Positions 4,541 through 47,267 of a stretch of 64,000 nt of DNA are shown here, piece by piece. Source of the DNA: a virus; IMG/VR virus record IMGVR_UViG_3300036985_002657, positions 1 to 64,000 of that record; one strand, given 5' to 3'. A model generated the notes under the pieces. That model was given only the letters and a program-made list of their open reading frames with translations, ran no database searches and was not told where the DNA came from. Made by a program: the position numbers and the translations under genes. Positions within the stretch are counted from its first letter, which is position 1. Each line of letters starts with the position of its first letter.

Positions 4541-4640
4541 CTGCACTCCGCGGGCGCAAGCTCGTGGAGTGCAGGCTGCGCCTTGGCGCTCGCCTTCTCC
4601 TCCCCACCTGTGGCGTCGAGGCGCAGCCTGCACTCCATGA
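4541..4640 (+). promoter_or_regulatory. Structured leader with mutually exclusive stems upstream of polA
   Basis: Hairpin 4541-4574 with GCAA loop, versus a perfect 19-bp inverted repeat 4565-4583/4619-4637. Confidence 0.55.
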
Positions 4641-4650
4641 ACGAGGAACG

Positions 4651-7236
4651 ATGATCAGACTCGCGCTGTACCCCATGCTACCGCAGGCAGCGGTCTCGCT
4701 CGCGCATCCCACAGCGGTCGATCACGACTGCGAACGCTGCGAGCTACACCAAGGCAGGCGTACCGTCTGCATGGCAGCCGAGGGCGCGCCTGGCGGGCTG
4801 CTCGTCGTCGCGGAGTCGCCCGGCAAGATCGAAGATCAGATGGGGCGCGGCTTCGCAGGTGCGGCGGGCAAGTACGTTCGCTCGCTGGTGGCGAAGCACT
4901 GGGGCGGCCCGGTGGCTTACGACCACGGTGTTCGGTGTCAGTCCACCGACGCAGGCGAGAAGGAGATCGCCGCGTGCCGTGTGTTCGGCGCGCGCATCCT
5001 GCTCGACGTGCAGCCGACGCGCATCCTGTGTCTCGGCAACGCGGCGGTGGAGGCGGTGCTCGGACATCGGCCGCCGCTCGCCAGCGCGCAACGCGGTTAC
5101 GGCTTCGTCTTCACCGCGCTCGATGATGCGATCCCCGTGTTCTTCCTGCCTGCCGCCGCGTTCGCGCTGCGCAACAGGTTCGTCAAGGCGGACTTCGAGC
5201 GCGACTTCCAACACGTCCTGACGTGCCCTGCGCCGGAGCCAGACTTCGACGAGCAGACAAACCTGATCGAGACTCGCGGCGATGCCGAGCTCGCCGTGCG
5301 CGTGCTCCAACAGGCTCCTTGGTTCTCCTACGACGTGGAGACCTCGGGCAAGATGGGCAACCCCGACTTCCGCATCGAGGCGCTGACGGCGATGGGCTTC
5401 GGGCAGGGCGATGCCTACACTTGGACCCGCGAGGCTCTGCGCGATCCGAGCATGACAGCGAAGCTGACCCAACTGCTCGCCGATCGCACCGTCGGCAAGA
5501 CGACACAGAACGGCAAGTACGATGATCGCTCCGTTCTTTGCGCGCTGAGCGTGAACGTCGAGGGCACCCGCTTCGATACCCGCCTCGGGCGCAAGCTGCT
5601 CGCCCCCGAGTCCGACGCACGCTTGGACACGCTTGCCTACCTCGTTGGGCTCGGCGGGCACAAGGACGAAGCGGGCGACCAGCTCGCGATCATCTGCAAG
5701 GAACTGCGCCGCCTTGCCAACCCACCTGCGCAACTGACGCCAAAGGGCAACGTGCGGAAGATCAAGCCGCCGTTGTTCCGTGTCGAGGAGTCCGTGCTCC
5801 AGCAGATCCGCGATGGTGAGGACGCGATGGCGTTCGCCTTCCGCTACCTCGATCCCACAACGCTCTACCGCTACAATGCGCGAGACGTGCAGGTGACGCT
5901 GCGCTGCGGCGTCAAGCTCGAAGCCGAACTCGCTGCCGACCCACAGACCAACCGCGTCTGGCGAGAGCTCACCGTCGGAGCCAACACCGCCGTCCGAGCG
6001 ATGGAGCACTGGGGCATCGCGTGCGACCGCCGCGCCGTCGAGATGTTCTCGATCTACTGCGAAGCGCGCATCAAGGACGCGACGAAGACGATCGAGAAGC
6101 ACGTCCCGGGGCTGAACCCCAACTCGCCGAAGCAGGTCGGCGACTTCCTGTTCAACAAGCTCGGGCTCAAGTCGTGGAAGGAGACCAAGAGCGGCGCGCA
6201 GTCTACGGACAACGAGGTGCTCGAGTCGCTCGCCCACAAGCACCCTGCGATCAACGCGCTGGTCAAGAGTCGCAAGTACACCAAGCTCAATGGCACCTAT
6301 GCACGCGGGATGCTGATCCATATTCGCGAAGACGGGCGCATCCACCCAAGCATCCTGATCGACGGCACGCGCACGCTGCGCTTCTCCTGCACCGATCCCA
6401 ACCTCCAGAACATCCCGCGTGCGGAGGGCGACGATGCGGTGGAGGCGGCGATGGCGCGCAACTGCTTCATCGCCCCGCCCGGCAGTCTGCTGCTCGAGCT
6501 GGACTACGCGCAGATCGAAGTGAAGGTGGCGGCGATGTTGGCGGGAGACGCGGTGATGATCGCCGACATCAACTCAGGCATCGACATCCATATGAACAAC
6601 GCGACTGCCTGCTGCACCGTCGCCTGGGGCATCCCGCGCGCGCAGTGGGATGCGATGGACAAGGCGGCGCGCAAGCCCTACCGCTCCAAGATCAAGACTG
6701 CGACCTTCGCCAAGCTGTACGGCAAGACGACGAGTGCGCTCGCCCGAGAGTGGGGCGCGCCAAAGGCCGAGGTCGAGAAGATCGACGCGGTGATCTGGGG
6801 CCGCTACAAACGCCTGGCGAAGTGGTGCGAGGAGCAGATCGCACAGGCGCGCCGCGTCGGCTACGTCGAGACGTGGTGGGACGGGCAGGCTGCCTACCGC
6901 CGCCCGCTGCACAAGGTCGCCGACCCCGAGGAGAACGTGCGCAAGCACGGCGAGAACGAGGCCGTCAACACGCCGGTACAGGGCACGGCGGCGCACTTCA
7001 TGTCGGCATCCCTGCCCCGCGTGCTCGACTGGATACGAGACGACGGCGCGCCCGCCAAGCTCGTCCTCACCGTCCACGACTCGATGATGCTCGAGGTGAA
7101 GGAGAAGTACGTCGATGAGGTGGCGCACGCCGCCCGCGACATCATGTGCAGCCATAACAGCAGCGGTGTGAAGATCACCGCCGATGCGAAGGTCGGGACC
7201 GCGTGGGGCTCGATGCAGGACTACGTCTTCAAGTGA
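4651..7236 (+). CDS. polA: Family A DNA polymerase with N-terminal family-4 uracil-DNA-glycosylase-like domain and 3'-5' exonuclease
   Basis: UDG-like CERC...AESPG...ED..G.F.G.AG...CLGN; exonuclease YDVET, NGKYD, YNARD; polymerase motifs PNLQNIP, LDYAQIE, KTATFAKLYG, NTPVQG, VHDS; ATG at 4651 after GAGG. Confidence 0.93.
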   Translation: MIRLALYPMLPQAAVSLAHPTAVDHDCERCELHQGRRTVCMAAEGAPGGLLVVAESPGKIEDQMGRGFAGAAGKYVRSLVAKHWGGPVAYDHGVRCQSTDAGEKEIAACRVFGARILLDVQPTRILCLGNAAVEAVLGHRPPLASAQRGYGFVFTALDDAIPVFFLPAAAFALRNRFVKADFERDFQHVLTCPAPEPDFDEQTNLIETRGDAELAVRVLQQAPWFSYDVETSGKMGNPDFRIEALTAMGFGQGDAYTWTREALRDPSMTAKLTQLLADRTVGKTTQNGKYDDRSVLCALSVNVEGTRFDTRLGRKLLAPESDARLDTLAYLVGLGGHKDEAGDQLAIICKELRRLANPPAQLTPKGNVRKIKPPLFRVEESVLQQIRDGEDAMAFAFRYLDPTTLYRYNARDVQVTLRCGVKLEAELAADPQTNRVWRELTVGANTAVRAMEHWGIACDRRAVEMFSIYCEARIKDATKTIEKHVPGLNPNSPKQVGDFLFNKLGLKSWKETKSGAQSTDNEVLESLAHKHPAINALVKSRKYTKLNGTYARGMLIHIREDGRIHPSILIDGTRTLRFSCTDPNLQNIPRAEGDDAVEAAMARNCFIAPPGSLLLELDYAQIEVKVAAMLAGDAVMIADINSGIDIHMNNATACCTVAWGIPRAQWDAMDKAARKPYRSKIKTATFAKLYGKTTSALAREWGAPKAEVEKIDAVIWGRYKRLAKWCEEQIAQARRVGYVETWWDGQAAYRRPLHKVADPEENVRKHGENEAVNTPVQGTAAHFMSASLPRVLDWIRDDGAPAKLVLTVHDSMMLEVKEKYVDEVAHAARDIMCSHNSSGVKITADAKVGTAWGSMQDYVFK

Positions 7237-7284: not shown

Positions 7285-7782
7285 ATGGCGAAGAAAGAGA
7301 CAGCACACGAAGCGGTACTGGCAGCGGTGGCGATCGACCCGCTGGCGCTCACCGACGAGTTCACCAAGATCCCATCCCACCTGGCTCGCTATAACGAGCT
7401 CTACGCTGACGCGCTGCGGCTGCACCTGTCGGCGAAGGTGAAGGTGGATCGCGCCTACGCGGCGAGCTACATCCGGTGCCGCGCCGAAGCGGAGGAGACC
7501 GGGGCGAAGACGACCGAGGGCATGATCAAGTCGATGGTGGACAACGACCCGACCTACCACGCCGCGCAGGATCACAGTGTCGTCTGCGAGGCAGAGAAGG
7601 CTCGGCTGTGGGGCGTGCTCGACGCGCTCCGCGCCAAGCGTGACGCGCTGATCTCACTCGGCGCGCACCTCCGCGCGGAGATGGCAGGCAGCCCGAGCAT
7701 CCGTGGTGAGGCGCGCGGCGCTCGCGACGTGGCATCCAACTTCGAGAACGACGATACCTTCGGTGTCGAAGTGACCGAGTAA
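7285..7782 (+). CDS. UvsY-like recombination mediator (helical, coiled-coil)
   Basis: K.TE..IK..VD.DP.Y...LDALRAKRDALISLG..LRAE pattern; lies next to SSB and recombinase genes. Confidence 0.55.
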   Translation: MAKKETAHEAVLAAVAIDPLALTDEFTKIPSHLARYNELYADALRLHLSAKVKVDRAYAASYIRCRAEAEETGAKTTEGMIKSMVDNDPTYHAAQDHSVVCEAEKARLWGVLDALRAKRDALISLGAHLRAEMAGSPSIRGEARGARDVASNFENDDTFGVEVTE

Positions 7783-44022: not shown

Positions 44023-44606
44023 CCTCGTGGCTCCCCAGACCGCGAGCGATCCTGTTGCGCACGAACAAGATGAATCGTCCACTGAAACCGCAGCGGATCG
44101 AGGCCGGGAGCGGACACACAGGTAAACCGGCGGCGCTCACCCATCTCACCGGGCGATGCCTGACTGCGCACCTCCCAGTAGAAGTTCTCATCGAGCGGGA
44201 TGGCTGCGCCGCCCGCGTAGTTGCCGACAAGCTCATCCTCGCTATAGCGCGGGCTGATCTCGCTGACCGTGAGCGTGCCGACCTCGAGCATACCGACAGA
44301 GTAGTTCTGCGCCTGCAATCCACTGAGATCGCTGATCTTCGGAGTCGGCAGAACAGCGACATCGCTGGTGACTTCCTCGACACCGACGCCACGCTCCCCG
44401 CCTGTCCAGCGTGTACGGATCAACGCGACTTCGTACACCCGCGCGCCCAGGCAGGTATACAGGTCACGAATCTGATCAACGGCAGGGACTAGCGAGCGGA
44501 CTAGCGTGCGCCGAACATCCAACGTCCCGAGAGACGTGAACTGCTGGTGCCCGCAGCGGCAGGCCGAGAACCCGCACGATGAGCAGCAGGCCACACGATC
44601 ACCCAC
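44019..44606 (-). CDS. Putative head-closure protein
   Basis: Synteny after the adaptor gene; beta-rich. Confidence 0.55.
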   Translation of the reverse strand: MGDRVACCSSCGFSACRCGHQQFTSLGTLDVRRTLVRSLVPAVDQIRDLYTCLGARVYEVALIRTRWTGGERGVGVEEVTSDVAVLPTPKISDLSGLQAQNYSVGMLEVGTLTVSEISPRYSEDELVGNYAGGAAIPLDENFYWEVRSQASPGEMGERRRFTCVSAPGLDPLRFQWTIHLVRAQQDRSRSGEPRG

Positions 44607-45015
44607 GCACGGTTAGGTTGCCCGTGCCGCCCTTGCTCTTGAATCGATCGGAGTAGGCGTACAGCGGCACACCGAGAATGTCGGCGAGGCGCTTCGCCCA
44701 TCGGACGTACTCACGCTCGAGCAGATCGGGGTAGGTGTTCCCGTTGTCTGCGCCGCGCAGCGTGATGTCGCCGAGCTTCTCCGCGACCAGTACACAGGTC
44801 GCGTTGCGCAGCTTCTCCTCGATGTCATCGAGCGTGAACAGAACACGCCGCACGCGGTCAACCGCGTCGGCGTTGTTCAACAGCCCGAGTGCCTGCTCGA
44901 GAAGAAAGACCGTCTGCACCGGGCGCGGGATACCGAACTGGAGCGACGCCGCGAACGACGTTTCCATGTACCCGAGATGATACCGACAGCGTTCCCTCTC
45001 AGAGTCGGTCAGCAT
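44599..45015 (-). CDS. Putative head-tail adaptor
   Basis: LT..E.ER.RYHLGY helical N-terminus; AGGAG RBS; downstream of the capsid gene. Confidence 0.6.
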   Translation of the reverse strand: MLTDSERERCRYHLGYMETSFAASLQFGIPRPVQTVFLLEQALGLLNNADAVDRVRRVLFTLDDIEEKLRNATCVLVAEKLGDITLRGADNGNTYPDLLEREYVRWAKRLADILGVPLYAYSDRFKSKGGTGNLTVRG

Positions 45016-45028
45016 CTAGGCTCCTGCG

Positions 45029-45388
45029 TTACCCTACCACCTTGCGGAACTCGACGCCTGCGTCGGCCATGCGCTGCTCGATGTTCGGCCCGTGCGACGC
45101 TTCCGAGAACAGCTTGCCCGGCTTGAGCGTGAGCGTCTGCCCGCCCCACGACACCGTGCACTGCGTCAGCACTTCGTAAACGGCCAGCGGCGCAGGCGCG
45201 GGCGGGACAGCCAGGGGCGGCTCGACAGGCGGCTTCGCCGACTTCTGTTTGCCTGCCTTGTCTGGCACAAGCACGGACGGAGGATCAGATGAGCTCTGCG
45301 ACTCACTCAGCGCGTCCGCAGCCCCGGTGTCGAGGGGGGAAACGGCAGCCGGAACCTTGTGCGCAGCGAGCGGGTCTTTAGAGCTCAT
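45029..45388 (-). CDS. Hypothetical protein (Pro-rich N-terminus, small beta domain)
   Basis: GGAGG RBS; typical position after a capsid gene. Confidence 0.65.
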   Translation of the reverse strand: MSSKDPLAAHKVPAAVSPLDTGAADALSESQSSSDPPSVLVPDKAGKQKSAKPPVEPPLAVPPAPAPLAVYEVLTQCTVSWGGQTLTLKPGKLFSEASHGPNIEQRMADAGVEFRKVVG

Positions 45389-45863
45389 CTGATCCTCCGT
45401 CGTTGAAGAAGTAGCAGCGTGGCGAACAGCAATCGGATCTGCGTGTTTACGTCTGGATTCACGAGCCGACGAAGCTCGATGAGCAGGGATCGAAGTTCAC
45501 TCCACAGGCCAGTCAGCGCGAGTCCGAAGAAACGTGAAGACGTGATGCCCTTGATCGTGTTCCTGCGAAGGACCGTATCATGCCGCCGAAACAGGGTCGC
45601 GGTACTAGAGATCAGCCCAGCTAAGGGGGTCACTCAGGTTTGCGAACCCCGTTACAGAAGGCCATCAGTGGATCATGCCGAAGCAATCACTACCTTGTTA
45701 CCGAAGTAACGGCCTTCCTACAGGGGAACATCGGGAGCTTGGCGAGGTTCCAGACCGAAATCTGAAACAGGGCTCCCGACTCGTGGCGGGCCTCAATGCC
45801 TAGAGGCGGACCACAGAGACGGTGCGCGCCCGATGGCTTTCGCCGCCAGGCACGCGGCGGCGA
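45389..45863 (-). ncRNA. Candidate large structured non-coding RNA (family not recognised)
   Basis: Largest gene-free gap in the window; ten UUCG on the - strand within 45423-45759, several capping real stems; nested helices and a three-way junction. Confidence 0.6.
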
Positions 45864-47267
45864 TCACTCGCCGTGCTCGACACAGAGCGCGCGCTTGTAG
45901 CGCGAGGCGTCGCCAGTCGCGGCGTCGGAGCGCACCGGCCAGTCGCCGATGAACTTCCACGAAGTCGCCACCTGATCCTGCAACCGATTCAGCGGACCAC
46001 GGATGATCATCTGGATGCGGTCGGACATGATCTCGATGCCGTTGTTGACGATGCGGGGCTCGGCGACTGCGCCCATGATGCCCGCCTCAGTGATCAGCGC
46101 GTCGAGGTTCTGGTGATACTCCATCACGCCGCCCTGCGCCGTGAACAGCATCCGGTGAACCTTGACACCCGACGTGACGCCGCCCGCGTAGAGCTCGCCG
46201 ACGAATGGATCGCGCGCGTCGTAGGCCGCCGTGAGGCCGCCGACAACGGTGCTCGGGATCGGGCACTCGCTGTTTCGGAGGAACACCGTCGAAAGCATCT
46301 CGCCGAGGGCGAACTGCTTATACATATAGTAATCGGGCAGTGCCGTCAAAAGGCGCTGGAACTCGTTGTCGTTGAACACCTTGGCCTGCGACACCGGATC
46401 GATATGCGCGTGAAAGCGCATATCGGGATGCTCGGGCACGTTCTGCTCCCAGAAGTGCGAGATCGCAGAGCGAATGTCCGACAGCGTGGGAAGGTCGGTG
46501 TTGCCGACCGAATCGACCGAGTTGCCGCCGCCGACGCGCACGAGGTAGGTGCGGTCGTCCGACAGGACGTATGCACGGTCGAGCGCGTTCACGAGAGCCG
46601 CGTCGATCGTGACCGTGCCGGGGCCGTACTCGTCACCAGGAGTGTCGGGCGTGAACCCGATGATGTTGCGCGACTTCTCCGTGGCGTTGTCGAAAATCTT
46701 GATCCCGAGCGGATTGCTCGAGCTCACGAGATCGAACTTGACGACACTCGCGCCGCTGGTGTTCGGGTTGCGCGCGCGGGTGAACCCGTTGAGGCGCTTG
46801 AGGCGGATCGTCGTCACCGCACCGAACGCGCCGTCAAGGACAGTGTGCCCCGAGAGGCCCGCGCCATAGAGCACGTTGCGGACCTTGCGGTTGAGCGTCT
46901 GCGACGCCTGCATCCCGAGCTGATGCGCGTTGCGCATGAACAGGTCGACGATCGCGCTGATGCTGGTGGGCATATGCGTGTCGATCGATCCGCTGTACTG
47001 CTGAATCTGCGCCTGCCACTGTTCGACCGAGTAGGTCGTCGGGACCGGATCGGTGCCCGGAACCGTCGGCCTCATGTCCACCGGGATGAGCCCCGGCGCA
47101 CTGAAGATCATCGTGTCGCCGACGTTCTGCGGCCACTCGACCGGCGTCGCCTCACCCCGGAACAGCATCCGGGGAAAGAGCGCGTCATGGAAAGCGCGCT
47201 CGAGCATATTGCTCTGAACGACCGCGCGGACTTGCGGTGACTGTAGGATCGTTGAGAAGTCGGCCAT
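45864..47267 (-). CDS. Major capsid protein
   Basis: 467 aa with strongly biased codons, after the scaffold gene; N.GDT..F, QY.G.IDT, QA.QTLN...RN and PL.RL.....SWK patterns of HK97-fold capsids. Confidence 0.8.
   Translation of the reverse strand: MADFSTILQSPQVRAVVQSNMLERAFHDALFPRMLFRGEATPVEWPQNVGDTMIFSAPGLIPVDMRPTVPGTDPVPTTYSVEQWQAQIQQYSGSIDTHMPTSISAIVDLFMRNAHQLGMQASQTLNRKVRNVLYGAGLSGHTVLDGAFGAVTTIRLKRLNGFTRARNPNTSGASVVKFDLVSSSNPLGIKIFDNATEKSRNIIGFTPDTPGDEYGPGTVTIDAALVNALDRAYVLSDDRTYLVRVGGGNSVDSVGNTDLPTLSDIRSAISHFWEQNVPEHPDMRFHAHIDPVSQAKVFNDNEFQRLLTALPDYYMYKQFALGEMLSTVFLRNSECPIPSTVVGGLTAAYDARDPFVGELYAGGVTSGVKVHRMLFTAQGGVMEYHQNLDALITEAGIMGAVAEPRIVNNGIEIMSDRIQMIIRGPLNRLQDQVATSWKFIGDWPVRSDAATGDASRYKRALCVEHGE

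Follow-up and report, generated by a model that had tools for sequence, protein, structure and literature searches.

Comparative evidence for a large, uncatalogued structured RNA downstream of the major capsid gene in a group of uncultured phages

Background

What does a 475-nucleotide (nt) gap directly after the major capsid gene of a phage encode, and what might it do within the late head-gene operon? The question is raised by positions 45389-45863, minus strand, of a 64,000-nt stretch of viral DNA (IMG/VR virus record IMGVR_UViG_3300036985_002657, positions 1 to 64,000; source phage genome, 77 kb), hereafter the window, to which all coordinates refer unless a relative is named. The gap separates the stop codon of a 467-amino-acid (aa) major head protein from the start of a 119-aa open reading frame (ORF), and a first-pass annotation, made from the letters of the window alone, had proposed that it encodes an unrecognised non-coding structured RNA. 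Comparison with related loci bears this out: compensatory base changes in many relatives indicate that the gap encodes a real, conserved and uncatalogued large structured RNA, sense to the late head-gene operon, of which the window copy is a divergent (type B) member. The RNA family was found in approximately 40 related uncultured phage contigs, always in sense orientation, with the major capsid gene upstream of it and a small conserved gene downstream, as in the window.

Non-coding RNAs of large size and intricate fold are rare; each known class (RNase P, group I and group II introns, OLE, GOLLD, and ROOL) has opened up new biochemistry. The family considered here is uncatalogued, comprises at least six covarying helices and a pseudoknot, occupies a fixed place in the head module, and is carried by a widespread, uncultured group of phages from soil, peat, sediment, and lake samples. 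A literature search returned no descriptions of such an RNA of approximately 450 nt.

Relatives, gene order and distribution

Taken alone, the gap sequence is a weak candidate, and it is the relatives that supply the evidence for a real RNA. The capsid gene has 100 relatives in IMG/VR, and our comparison set comprised 80 viral loci related by capsid protein (50-78% identity) together with two contigs from metagenome-assembled genomes (MAGs). Gene order is kept in the relatives (scaffold, capsid, variable gap, small gene, and homologues of the 138-aa and 195-aa ORFs), with some gaps measuring approximately 55-145 nt before the small gene and others being approximately 250-500 nt longer. The long gaps are UUCG-rich too, and have in common the motif GCAAACC-hairpin-GGAACCGC, flanked by sequences that are complementary to each other and differ among phages. 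When all of IMG/VR was scanned for the exact motif, 29 matches were obtained, each with a capsid homologue (42-66% identity) on one side and the same downstream genes on the other. Across the family the RNA is approximately 250-450 nt long, is built of several domains, and ends 12-45 nt upstream of the small-gene start codon. A blastn search of the gap against the 80 relatives revealed short DNA stretches common to the two closest relatives only, and the capsid gene plus gap produced no blastn matches in the phage GenBank collection.

Presence of the RNA on the capsid tree is patchy, with at least six changes forced by well-supported branches and 18 by parsimony, counts that are inflated by loci scored as absent which include divergent copies (L011, L019, L030, L038, and L034) or incomplete contigs. 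One relative, L031, retains a short form consisting of the 3' domain alone. The annotation had placed the RNA directly downstream of the capsid gene, which is its position in the window; among relatives, the RNA is tied more tightly to where the small gene begins than to the capsid stop. In L079, it has kept its place beside the downstream genes despite the following insertion after the capsid gene:

L079, 5419-7709: insertion between the capsid gene and the RNA, carrying genes for an HNH endonuclease, a dCTP deaminase-like protein, an unknown ORF, and a tRNA (7643-7709)

The capsid-neck boundary is an insertion hot spot. HNH-type sequence motifs are also seen in the same gap of L017, L020, L031, and L044.

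Conservation of the junction module and long-range helix

The junction module comprises two paired elements, a helix (P-J) and a hairpin (P-H) that has a conserved C-U mismatch, and between them an internal loop of 3x4 nt that lies within 11 invariant nucleotides. In brief, 28 modules were aligned using MAFFT, the structure was drawn on the alignment, and a covariance model (R1) was built from it. Across these modules, 87.8% of cells are paired, compared with 36-40% when partners are slid, and 79 cells are changed on both sides, compared with 28 in shuffles (0/500 shuffles were as high). R1 matched 37 of the 86 sources searched (742 kb), loci outside the seed among them, with a single match in each locus and every match on the capsid strand. 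In the window it matches 45589-45653 with 31.1 bits and an expectation value (E) of 1.3e-4 over the 742 kb, and in the 77-kb phage genome the match is single-copy with an E of 1.4e-5. The window module keeps GCAAACC and CCGC, carries AGUA in place of GGAA, and has a longer hairpin.

A long-range helix, P-L, is formed in the family by GGYGGC just past the junction and GCCRCC just past helix P-M of the 3' domain. Complementarity at this fixed place is perfect in 7 of 15 cases and extends over five of the six positions in the rest, the corresponding rate of perfect matches in control windows being 9%. In the window, GGCGGC pairs with GCUGCU through six pairs, two of which are G.U. Folding z-scores of nine relatives range from -2.5 to -9.0.

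The 3' domain and its pseudoknot

The 3' domain of every member folds to one architecture from unrelated sequences: a P-M helix of 10-16 base pairs (bp) encloses a P-N helix of 5-8 bp, and a compact H-type pseudoknot lies innermost, with the type A consensus CCCYUAC-S2-GGG-loop-S2'-GGUU. Alignment with MAFFT followed by RNAalifold recovered pseudoknot stem S2 alone, because the outer helices share no sequence, and a scan with a generic pseudoknot descriptor was unspecific (7,491 clusters in 0.95 Mb) and was dropped. The domain was solved via a covariance model built from one subgroup of six sequences and then iterated. Run without filters, the subgroup model ranked the correct site top (E<0.4) in 8 of 11 other loci, and after one iteration 26 loci match. 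In the resulting 26-row alignment, 93% of cells pair, compared with 38-46% when slid, and 28/28 pairs show compensatory changes; these counts lean towards structure, as the alignment was fitted to the nested helices, while the slid controls and pseudoknot stem S1, three pairs absent from the model that also covary, are independent of the fitting.

The window copy groups with L002/L003, L004, L011, L012, L024, and L108 in a type B subgroup. Blocks CGUAACGGG, GCAAACC, UUUCGGCGGCAUGAU, and GCNGCUACUU are conserved between the window and L002 and L004. The window 3' domain shows the same topology as the family by eye and by folding, and its pseudoknot covaries with those of L012 (U-A in S1), L024 (S2 AGCCC/GGGCU), and L108 (S1 CGUGC/GCACG, S2 AGUC/GACU). 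Over the six type B relatives, five of the nine pseudoknot pairs are changed on both sides, a count that none of 500 shuffles attained. Covariation, which the first-pass annotation had left to be looked for, is found in the form of compensatory base changes in the junction module, the 3' domain, and the pseudoknot.

Coding potential and matches to known RNA families

Two ORFs overlap the gap, one of 82 aa on the minus strand and one of 96 aa on the plus strand. The possibility that ORF 45385-45633 is a conserved protein that explains the region is refuted by homologue searches: neither it nor the antisense ORF has Pfam or PHROG matches, or tblastn matches in the 80 relatives, and ORF 45385-45633 has no homologues among 5.8 billion proteins. 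Protein-level conservation upstream of the small gene was likewise absent when the 80 relatives were compared using tblastx. The length of the junction motif varies among phages (28, 29, 30, or 31 nt), and the two invariant halves of the motif therefore cannot share a reading frame. The stop codon of ORF 45385-45633 overlaps the next ATG (ATGA) because the small gene starts with Met-Ser.

No Rfam family, riboswitches included, was matched at gathering score in the whole window, and a permissive scan of the gap region returned noise (E 0.27-2). The annotation had seen no group I, group II, RNase P, tmRNA, or tRNA signatures, and Rfam 15 and ARAGORN agree, the latter detecting no tRNA or tmRNA in the window. 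In 16 relatives, Rfam 15 at gathering score produced no matches except for one tRNA in L079, and a permissive scan of L061 gave noise only. Group I and group II introns and all ribozyme families were unmatched in the window region and in L061 even at E up to 10.

Helix map of the window copy

The features that had first singled out the gap are confirmed. UUCG occurs ten times on the minus strand of 45389-45863, at precisely the plus-strand CGAA positions that had been listed; the GC content is lower than that of the window (0.56 vs 0.64); and every helix that had been named is found in the gap sequence. Of these helices, UCGCCGCC/GGCGGCGA lies immediately 3' of the capsid stop, UCGGGAGC/GCUCCCGA encloses GUUUCAGAU-UUCG-GUCUGGAAC, and GAAGGCC/GGCCUUC encloses GUUAC-UUCG-GUAAC and UGC-UUCG-GCA. 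The accompanying estimate that one or two UUCG would be expected by chance is too low, with the background of CGAA on the strand being 3.2 per 475 nt. Ten CGAA is the window maximum and is reached by 0.4% of sliding windows, and nine are reached at six other places; because of this background and these six stretches, the UUCG count alone is weak evidence. Comparative structure places 3-5 of the ten in hairpin tetraloops and the rest in helix strands, linkers, or the pseudoknot. The elements of the window copy are as follows.

45413..45863, minus strand: whole structured RNA element (RNA nt 1-451, nt 1 being 45863), from the capsid stop codon to the P-L 3' strand
45840..45863, minus strand: H1, GC-rich hairpin UCGCCGCC...GGCGGCGA, directly 3' of the capsid stop, without a U-tract
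45780..45818, minus strand: H2, second hairpin CUCUGUGG...CCACGAG, predicted for the window sequence only, in a region that is variable among relatives
45731..45779, minus strand: domain I, with outer stem UCGGGAGC/GCUCCCGA and inner hairpin GUUUCAGAU-UUCG-GUCUGGAAC
45739-45746, minus strand: conserved bulge CUCGCCAA of domain I
45657..45718, minus strand: three-way junction, GGAAGGCC/GGCCUUC enclosing GUUAC-UUCG-GUAAC and UGAUUGC-UUCG-GCAUGAUC
45589..45653, minus strand: junction module, with P-J GGGGUU/GACCCU enclosing a long variant of hairpin P-H
45637-45643, minus strand: GCAAACC of the junction module internal loop, opposite ACCGC (family consensus GGAACCGC)
45582..45587, minus strand: P-L 5' strand GGCGGC, within conserved UUUCGGCGGCAUGAU
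45506..45581, minus strand: variable hairpin region from P-L to P-M, with three UUCG sites, poorly conserved in the family
45419..45505, minus strand: 3' domain, with P-M formed by 45488-45505 and 45419-45439
45483-45486 with 45439-45442, minus strand: P-N CUGC/GCAG, inside P-M
45474-45478 with 45462-45466, minus strand: S1 CGAGC/GCUCG of the H-type pseudoknot, 3' domain
45468-45471 with 45450-45453, minus strand: S2 CGUC/GACG of the H-type pseudoknot, 3' domain
45413..45418, minus strand: P-L 3' strand GCUGCU, followed by ACUUCUUC, a weak U-run

Relatives also have a strong hairpin at the position of H1, and in a strain variant C19 of H1 is changed to U, such that a G-C pair becomes G.U and pairing is kept. 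Both stems of domain I show compensatory changes relative to L002 and L004, and its stem-hairpin-YACGCCAR-stem pattern is also present in L033, L052, and L053. The outer stem of the three-way junction covaries with that of L002 (GGAGAGAC/GUCUCUCC).

The GCCAA of the domain I bulge (45739-45746) is complementary to UUGGC/UCGGCG overlapping the P-L 5' strand (45582-45590). By eye in four sequences, the complementarity amounts to 6 bp in L004, 5 bp in L033, and 4-5 bp in the window. It shows no covariation, both motifs being conserved, and it is possible that it represents an alternative pairing or a tertiary contact.

Transcription context

A scan for sigma-70-type promoters found none in the window or in L045, L023, and L070, three relatives of lower GC content, and the simplest assumption is therefore that the RNA is transcribed together with the late operon. 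In relatives without the RNA, the same short intergenic space holds a strong GC hairpin with the small-gene ribosome-binding site directly after it. By a strict rule, this plain hairpin is a canonical terminator no more than approximately 70 nt from the capsid stop in 7 of 28 loci, with several more having weaker U-tracts; an eighth strict-rule terminator, in L081, lies approximately 400 nt downstream. Strong GC hairpins within the first 55-110 nt past the capsid stop, many of them of classic intrinsic-terminator form, were observed in L015, L022, L027, L042, L051, L060, L067, L068, and L072. Loci that bear the RNA usually keep a hairpin right after the capsid stop, with the RNA between this hairpin and the ribosome-binding site, and in L023 a canonical terminator (5418-5439) lies upstream of the RNA. 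In many members the 3' helix of the RNA is followed by 3-6 U, the tail in the window being ACUUCUUC. The presence of a terminator-type hairpin at the same spot in relatives lacking the RNA points first to a cis role at the operon boundary.

In a lake metatranscriptome, one 176-nt contig is identical to 45483-45657 and three further contigs derive from the capsid gene. The four sequencing runs consist of contigs only, in which RNA ends, strand, and levels are unreadable, and the metatranscriptome contigs show presence in an RNA library only; likewise, the lack of metatranscriptome cover over 44500-45483 is not evidence. Habitat labels were taken into account only for runs with more than a small share. 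In a strain variant from another lake metagenome, the RNA differs at 3/373 covered positions (0.8%), one of them the H1 change, compared with 1.7-3.0% in the flanking genes.

The genes on either side of the RNA, together with an inverted repeat adjoining its 3' edge, are located as follows.

45864..47267, minus strand: major capsid gene, the upstream neighbour, encoding 467 aa (PHROG 1357 major head protein, E 9e-7)
45029-45388, minus strand: small downstream gene, encoding 119 aa, with its start codon at 45386-45388 and homologues in relatives
45394-45398, minus strand: Shine-Dalgarno sequence GGAGG of the small downstream gene
45276-45297 and 45380-45401, minus strand: arms of a perfect, phage-specific 22-nt inverted repeat

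The major capsid protein has no Pfam family matches. As RNA, the repeat region (45276..45401) folds (-82 kcal/mol, z -6.8) such that both the Shine-Dalgarno sequence and the start codon of the small gene are enclosed in a stem of approximately 24 bp; seven relatives lack the repeat, and the strain variant has it without change. From the fold, this stem could act as a translational lock that blocks initiation or as an RNase III-type site.

The small protein, which has homologues in approximately 50 loci, has a Pro/Ala-rich linker between a conserved motif at the N-terminus, K-x-DP(L/V)E-x-AK, and a conserved domain of approximately 55 aa at the C-terminus that reads roughly YRV...SxxGQ...L..G..VS..SYG...I..L...GV.LE. 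It matches no Pfam or PHROG family, and its matches in the protein atlas are unnamed viral clusters only (scores <=0.82).

A proposed cis-acting element at the capsid-to-neck boundary

While the structure is established by compensatory changes, its function is one that we infer from position, form, and comparison. Our leading interpretation, which we consider plausible though somewhat short of probable, is that the RNA acts in cis and determines the fate of the transcript where the capsid gene gives way to the neck genes. On this proposal, the RNA would be transcribed within the late transcript by polymerases that pass the post-capsid hairpin. Its compact two-domain fold, closed by P-L and P-M before a short U-run, would then tune how much of the transcript is extended into, or stays intact over, the neck and tail genes downstream, and the RNA would replace or elaborate the plain terminator hairpin of relatives that lack it. 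Judging from its invariant loops, the RNA may make tertiary contacts or bind a factor, either of which could render the effect conditional, and in this phage the additional 22-bp helix may also lock the ribosome-binding site of the next gene. Of the features expected of a riboswitch or attenuator, a conserved core is present, and the possible alternative pairing of the domain I bulge with UUGGC, which overlaps P-L, is without covariation.

Several observations weigh against this interpretation. The 45389-45863 stretch contains no intrinsic terminator (GC-rich, short-loop hairpin plus U-tract), and canonical terminators are almost absent from the 3' end of the RNA across the family. A simple hairpin suffices in relatives, leaving approximately 400 extra conserved nucleotides that termination or stabilisation alone does not explain. 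The metatranscriptome contig over the RNA has a depth of 21, compared with 3-14 for the capsid pieces, which fits a separately accumulating stable RNA, contig depth being a poor measure and DNA carry-over being possible. As for the window copy itself, its minimum-free-energy z-score against shuffles is weak (-1.7 to -1.8), the type A model R3, run without filters, does not lift its 3' domain above noise, and membership of that domain in the family rests on a seven-sequence alignment.

Alternative roles

A trans role is possible, though we think it unlikely: the RNA would be a stable, ornate molecule released by processing or termination and present at capsid-mRNA levels, acting as a head-assembly or packaging cofactor, as a decoy for a host defence or RNA-binding protein, or as an RNA-only assembly like those of ROOL and GOLLD. 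Its size, its domains, the invariant internal loop, and the pseudoknot exceed what a terminator needs, it lies within the head-morphogenesis module, and its patchy occurrence among close relatives resembles that of an accessory gene. The contig over the RNA being the deepest of the four metatranscriptome pieces also favours such a role, weakly, as does the tRNA gene adjacent to the RNA in L079, and possibly in L081, an arrangement often seen for ROOL and GOLLD (PMC5737381). Set against these points, no promoter consensus lies upstream of the RNA, the ribosome-binding site of the next gene invariably adjoins its 3' end, its 5' part is poorly conserved, and the short form in L031 dispenses with everything other than the 3' domain.

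The RNA invariably ends 12-45 nt short of the small-gene start codon, which raises the question of whether it is instead a 5' leader, namely an operator through which a protein or ligand would control translation or stability of the small gene. Models for protein-responsive leaders are the T4 gene 32 pseudoknot operator and the leaders of ribosomal-protein genes. In L079 the RNA stays with the small gene, in L023 it follows a canonical terminator and therefore belongs to the downstream unit, and in the window phage a 22-bp helix covers the Shine-Dalgarno sequence and AUG. We nevertheless judge a leader function improbable, as the ribosome-binding site lies outside the conserved structure in most members, relatives express the same gene with no leader at all, and the small protein has no recognisable RNA-binding domain or known family.

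Self-processing or mobility is very unlikely. The RNA would be either a new self-cleaving ribozyme that parts the capsid mRNA from the downstream mRNA, or an intron-like element spread by homing nucleases, and patchy presence among near-identical capsids, the recurrence of HNH endonuclease genes in the gap (L079, and by motif L017, L020, L031, and L044), and a core with a pseudoknot and invariant unpaired nucleotides are all consistent with it. However, no group I or II intron or ribozyme family is matched at E up to 10, the divergent copies in loci counted as absent make true gains and losses fewer than counted, and the order of helices appears unlike the P3-P7 topology of group I introns. 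No spliced or cleaved form was seen either, though contigs cannot show one.

Finally, that there is no functional RNA, the gap being a decayed or unannotated protein gene, or its hairpins having clustered by chance in GC-rich DNA, can be practically dismissed: ORFs of 82 and 96 aa overlap the gap, relatives show ORFs of 137-157 aa across the region, and the UUCG count is unexceptional by itself, but Pfam and PHROG matches, protein similarity among relatives, and homologues among the 5.8 billion proteins are all lacking, the conserved nucleotide motifs are split by spacers that are not multiples of three, and the compensatory changes include strand-specific G.U pairs.

Comparison with known systems

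The intrinsic terminator T-phi, behind the major capsid gene (gene 10) of T7, exemplifies the simplest element found at such a site. Like post-capsid terminators and plain hairpins, the RNA described here lies in the same position and orientation between the capsid gene and neck genes that are needed less abundantly, just before the next ribosome-binding site; family members start out with a GC hairpin, and in many of them a short U-run comes after the final helix. Unlike them, it is approximately 10-fold larger, is composed of multiple domains, and contains invariant loops and a pseudoknot, while the window copy is without the hairpin-plus-U-tract consensus and almost no member has one at its 3' end.

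The prohead RNA (pRNA) of phi29 is approximately 170 nt long, is encoded near the genome end, and has its own promoter. The RNA of the window resembles it in being a structured RNA encoded by a phage and linked, on the annotation's proposal, with head morphogenesis, and differs in that the Rfam family of the phi29 RNA is unmatched here. The Mu-gpT-DE motif, a structured element downstream of Mu-type major head genes, was reportedly described by Weinberg et al. in 2010. It too is a conserved RNA structure in the apparent 3' untranslated region of a phage major capsid gene that emerged from comparative analysis of metagenomes; in contrast to the present RNA, it is a small two-hairpin motif associated with gpT-type capsids of Mu, whereas the RNA here has no Rfam match and its capsid matches PHROG 1357.

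ROOL and GOLLD are large ornate RNAs of phages and prophages (PMC5737381) for which cryo-electron microscopy has revealed assemblies (PMC12286853). They share with the present family a large size, an intricate structure, carriage by phages, discovery by comparative genomics only, and the occasional adjacency of tRNA genes (here in L079). Both are represented in Rfam and neither was matched; the RNA described here is smaller, and is fixed in one syntenic slot of the head module where it abuts the start of the next gene. Fremin et al. (2023) reported 8,495 candidate structured RNAs of 29-151 nt from intergenic regions of IMG/VR (PMC10690425). These candidates have the same data source and type of evidence as ours, and pieces of the present RNA may be among them, but at <=151 nt they fall well below the approximately 450 nt of the RNA here.

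The same site in close relatives may hold a plain hairpin, the 3' domain only, or the full 450-nt RNA, and this natural experiment makes swaps between them possible. If the RNA does nothing other than tune read-through, it is an unusually elaborate boundary element. A bolder conjecture, which we put forward with considerable doubt, is that the family constitutes a novel kind of large phage RNA that acts in trans and is produced late in infection in amounts like those of the capsid mRNA, with the junction loop and pseudoknot as its functional site and not as parts of a boundary device; trans action, if true, would add a new class of functional phage RNA.

Additional observations

Elsewhere in the window, positions 4558-4640 form a long near-perfect inverted repeat with GC-rich arms of approximately 15 bp (GGAGUGCAGGCUGCG...CGCAGCCUGCACUCC), which is the top noise match of model R3 on both strands. 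The two MAG-derived contigs, L108 (PMZA01000066.1) and L109 (CAYVOK010000047.1), were binned with Armatimonadetes and Acidimicrobiaceae, respectively, and carry the same capsid gene with divergent copies of the RNA; they may be mis-binned phage contigs or prophages, and are too few for a host to be named. In L081, approximately 110-200 nt past the capsid stop, a tRNA-like sequence with a CCA end and an anticodon loop containing GUA can be recognised by eye; it lies right after the capsid hairpin and is followed by a structured stretch and a U6 run.

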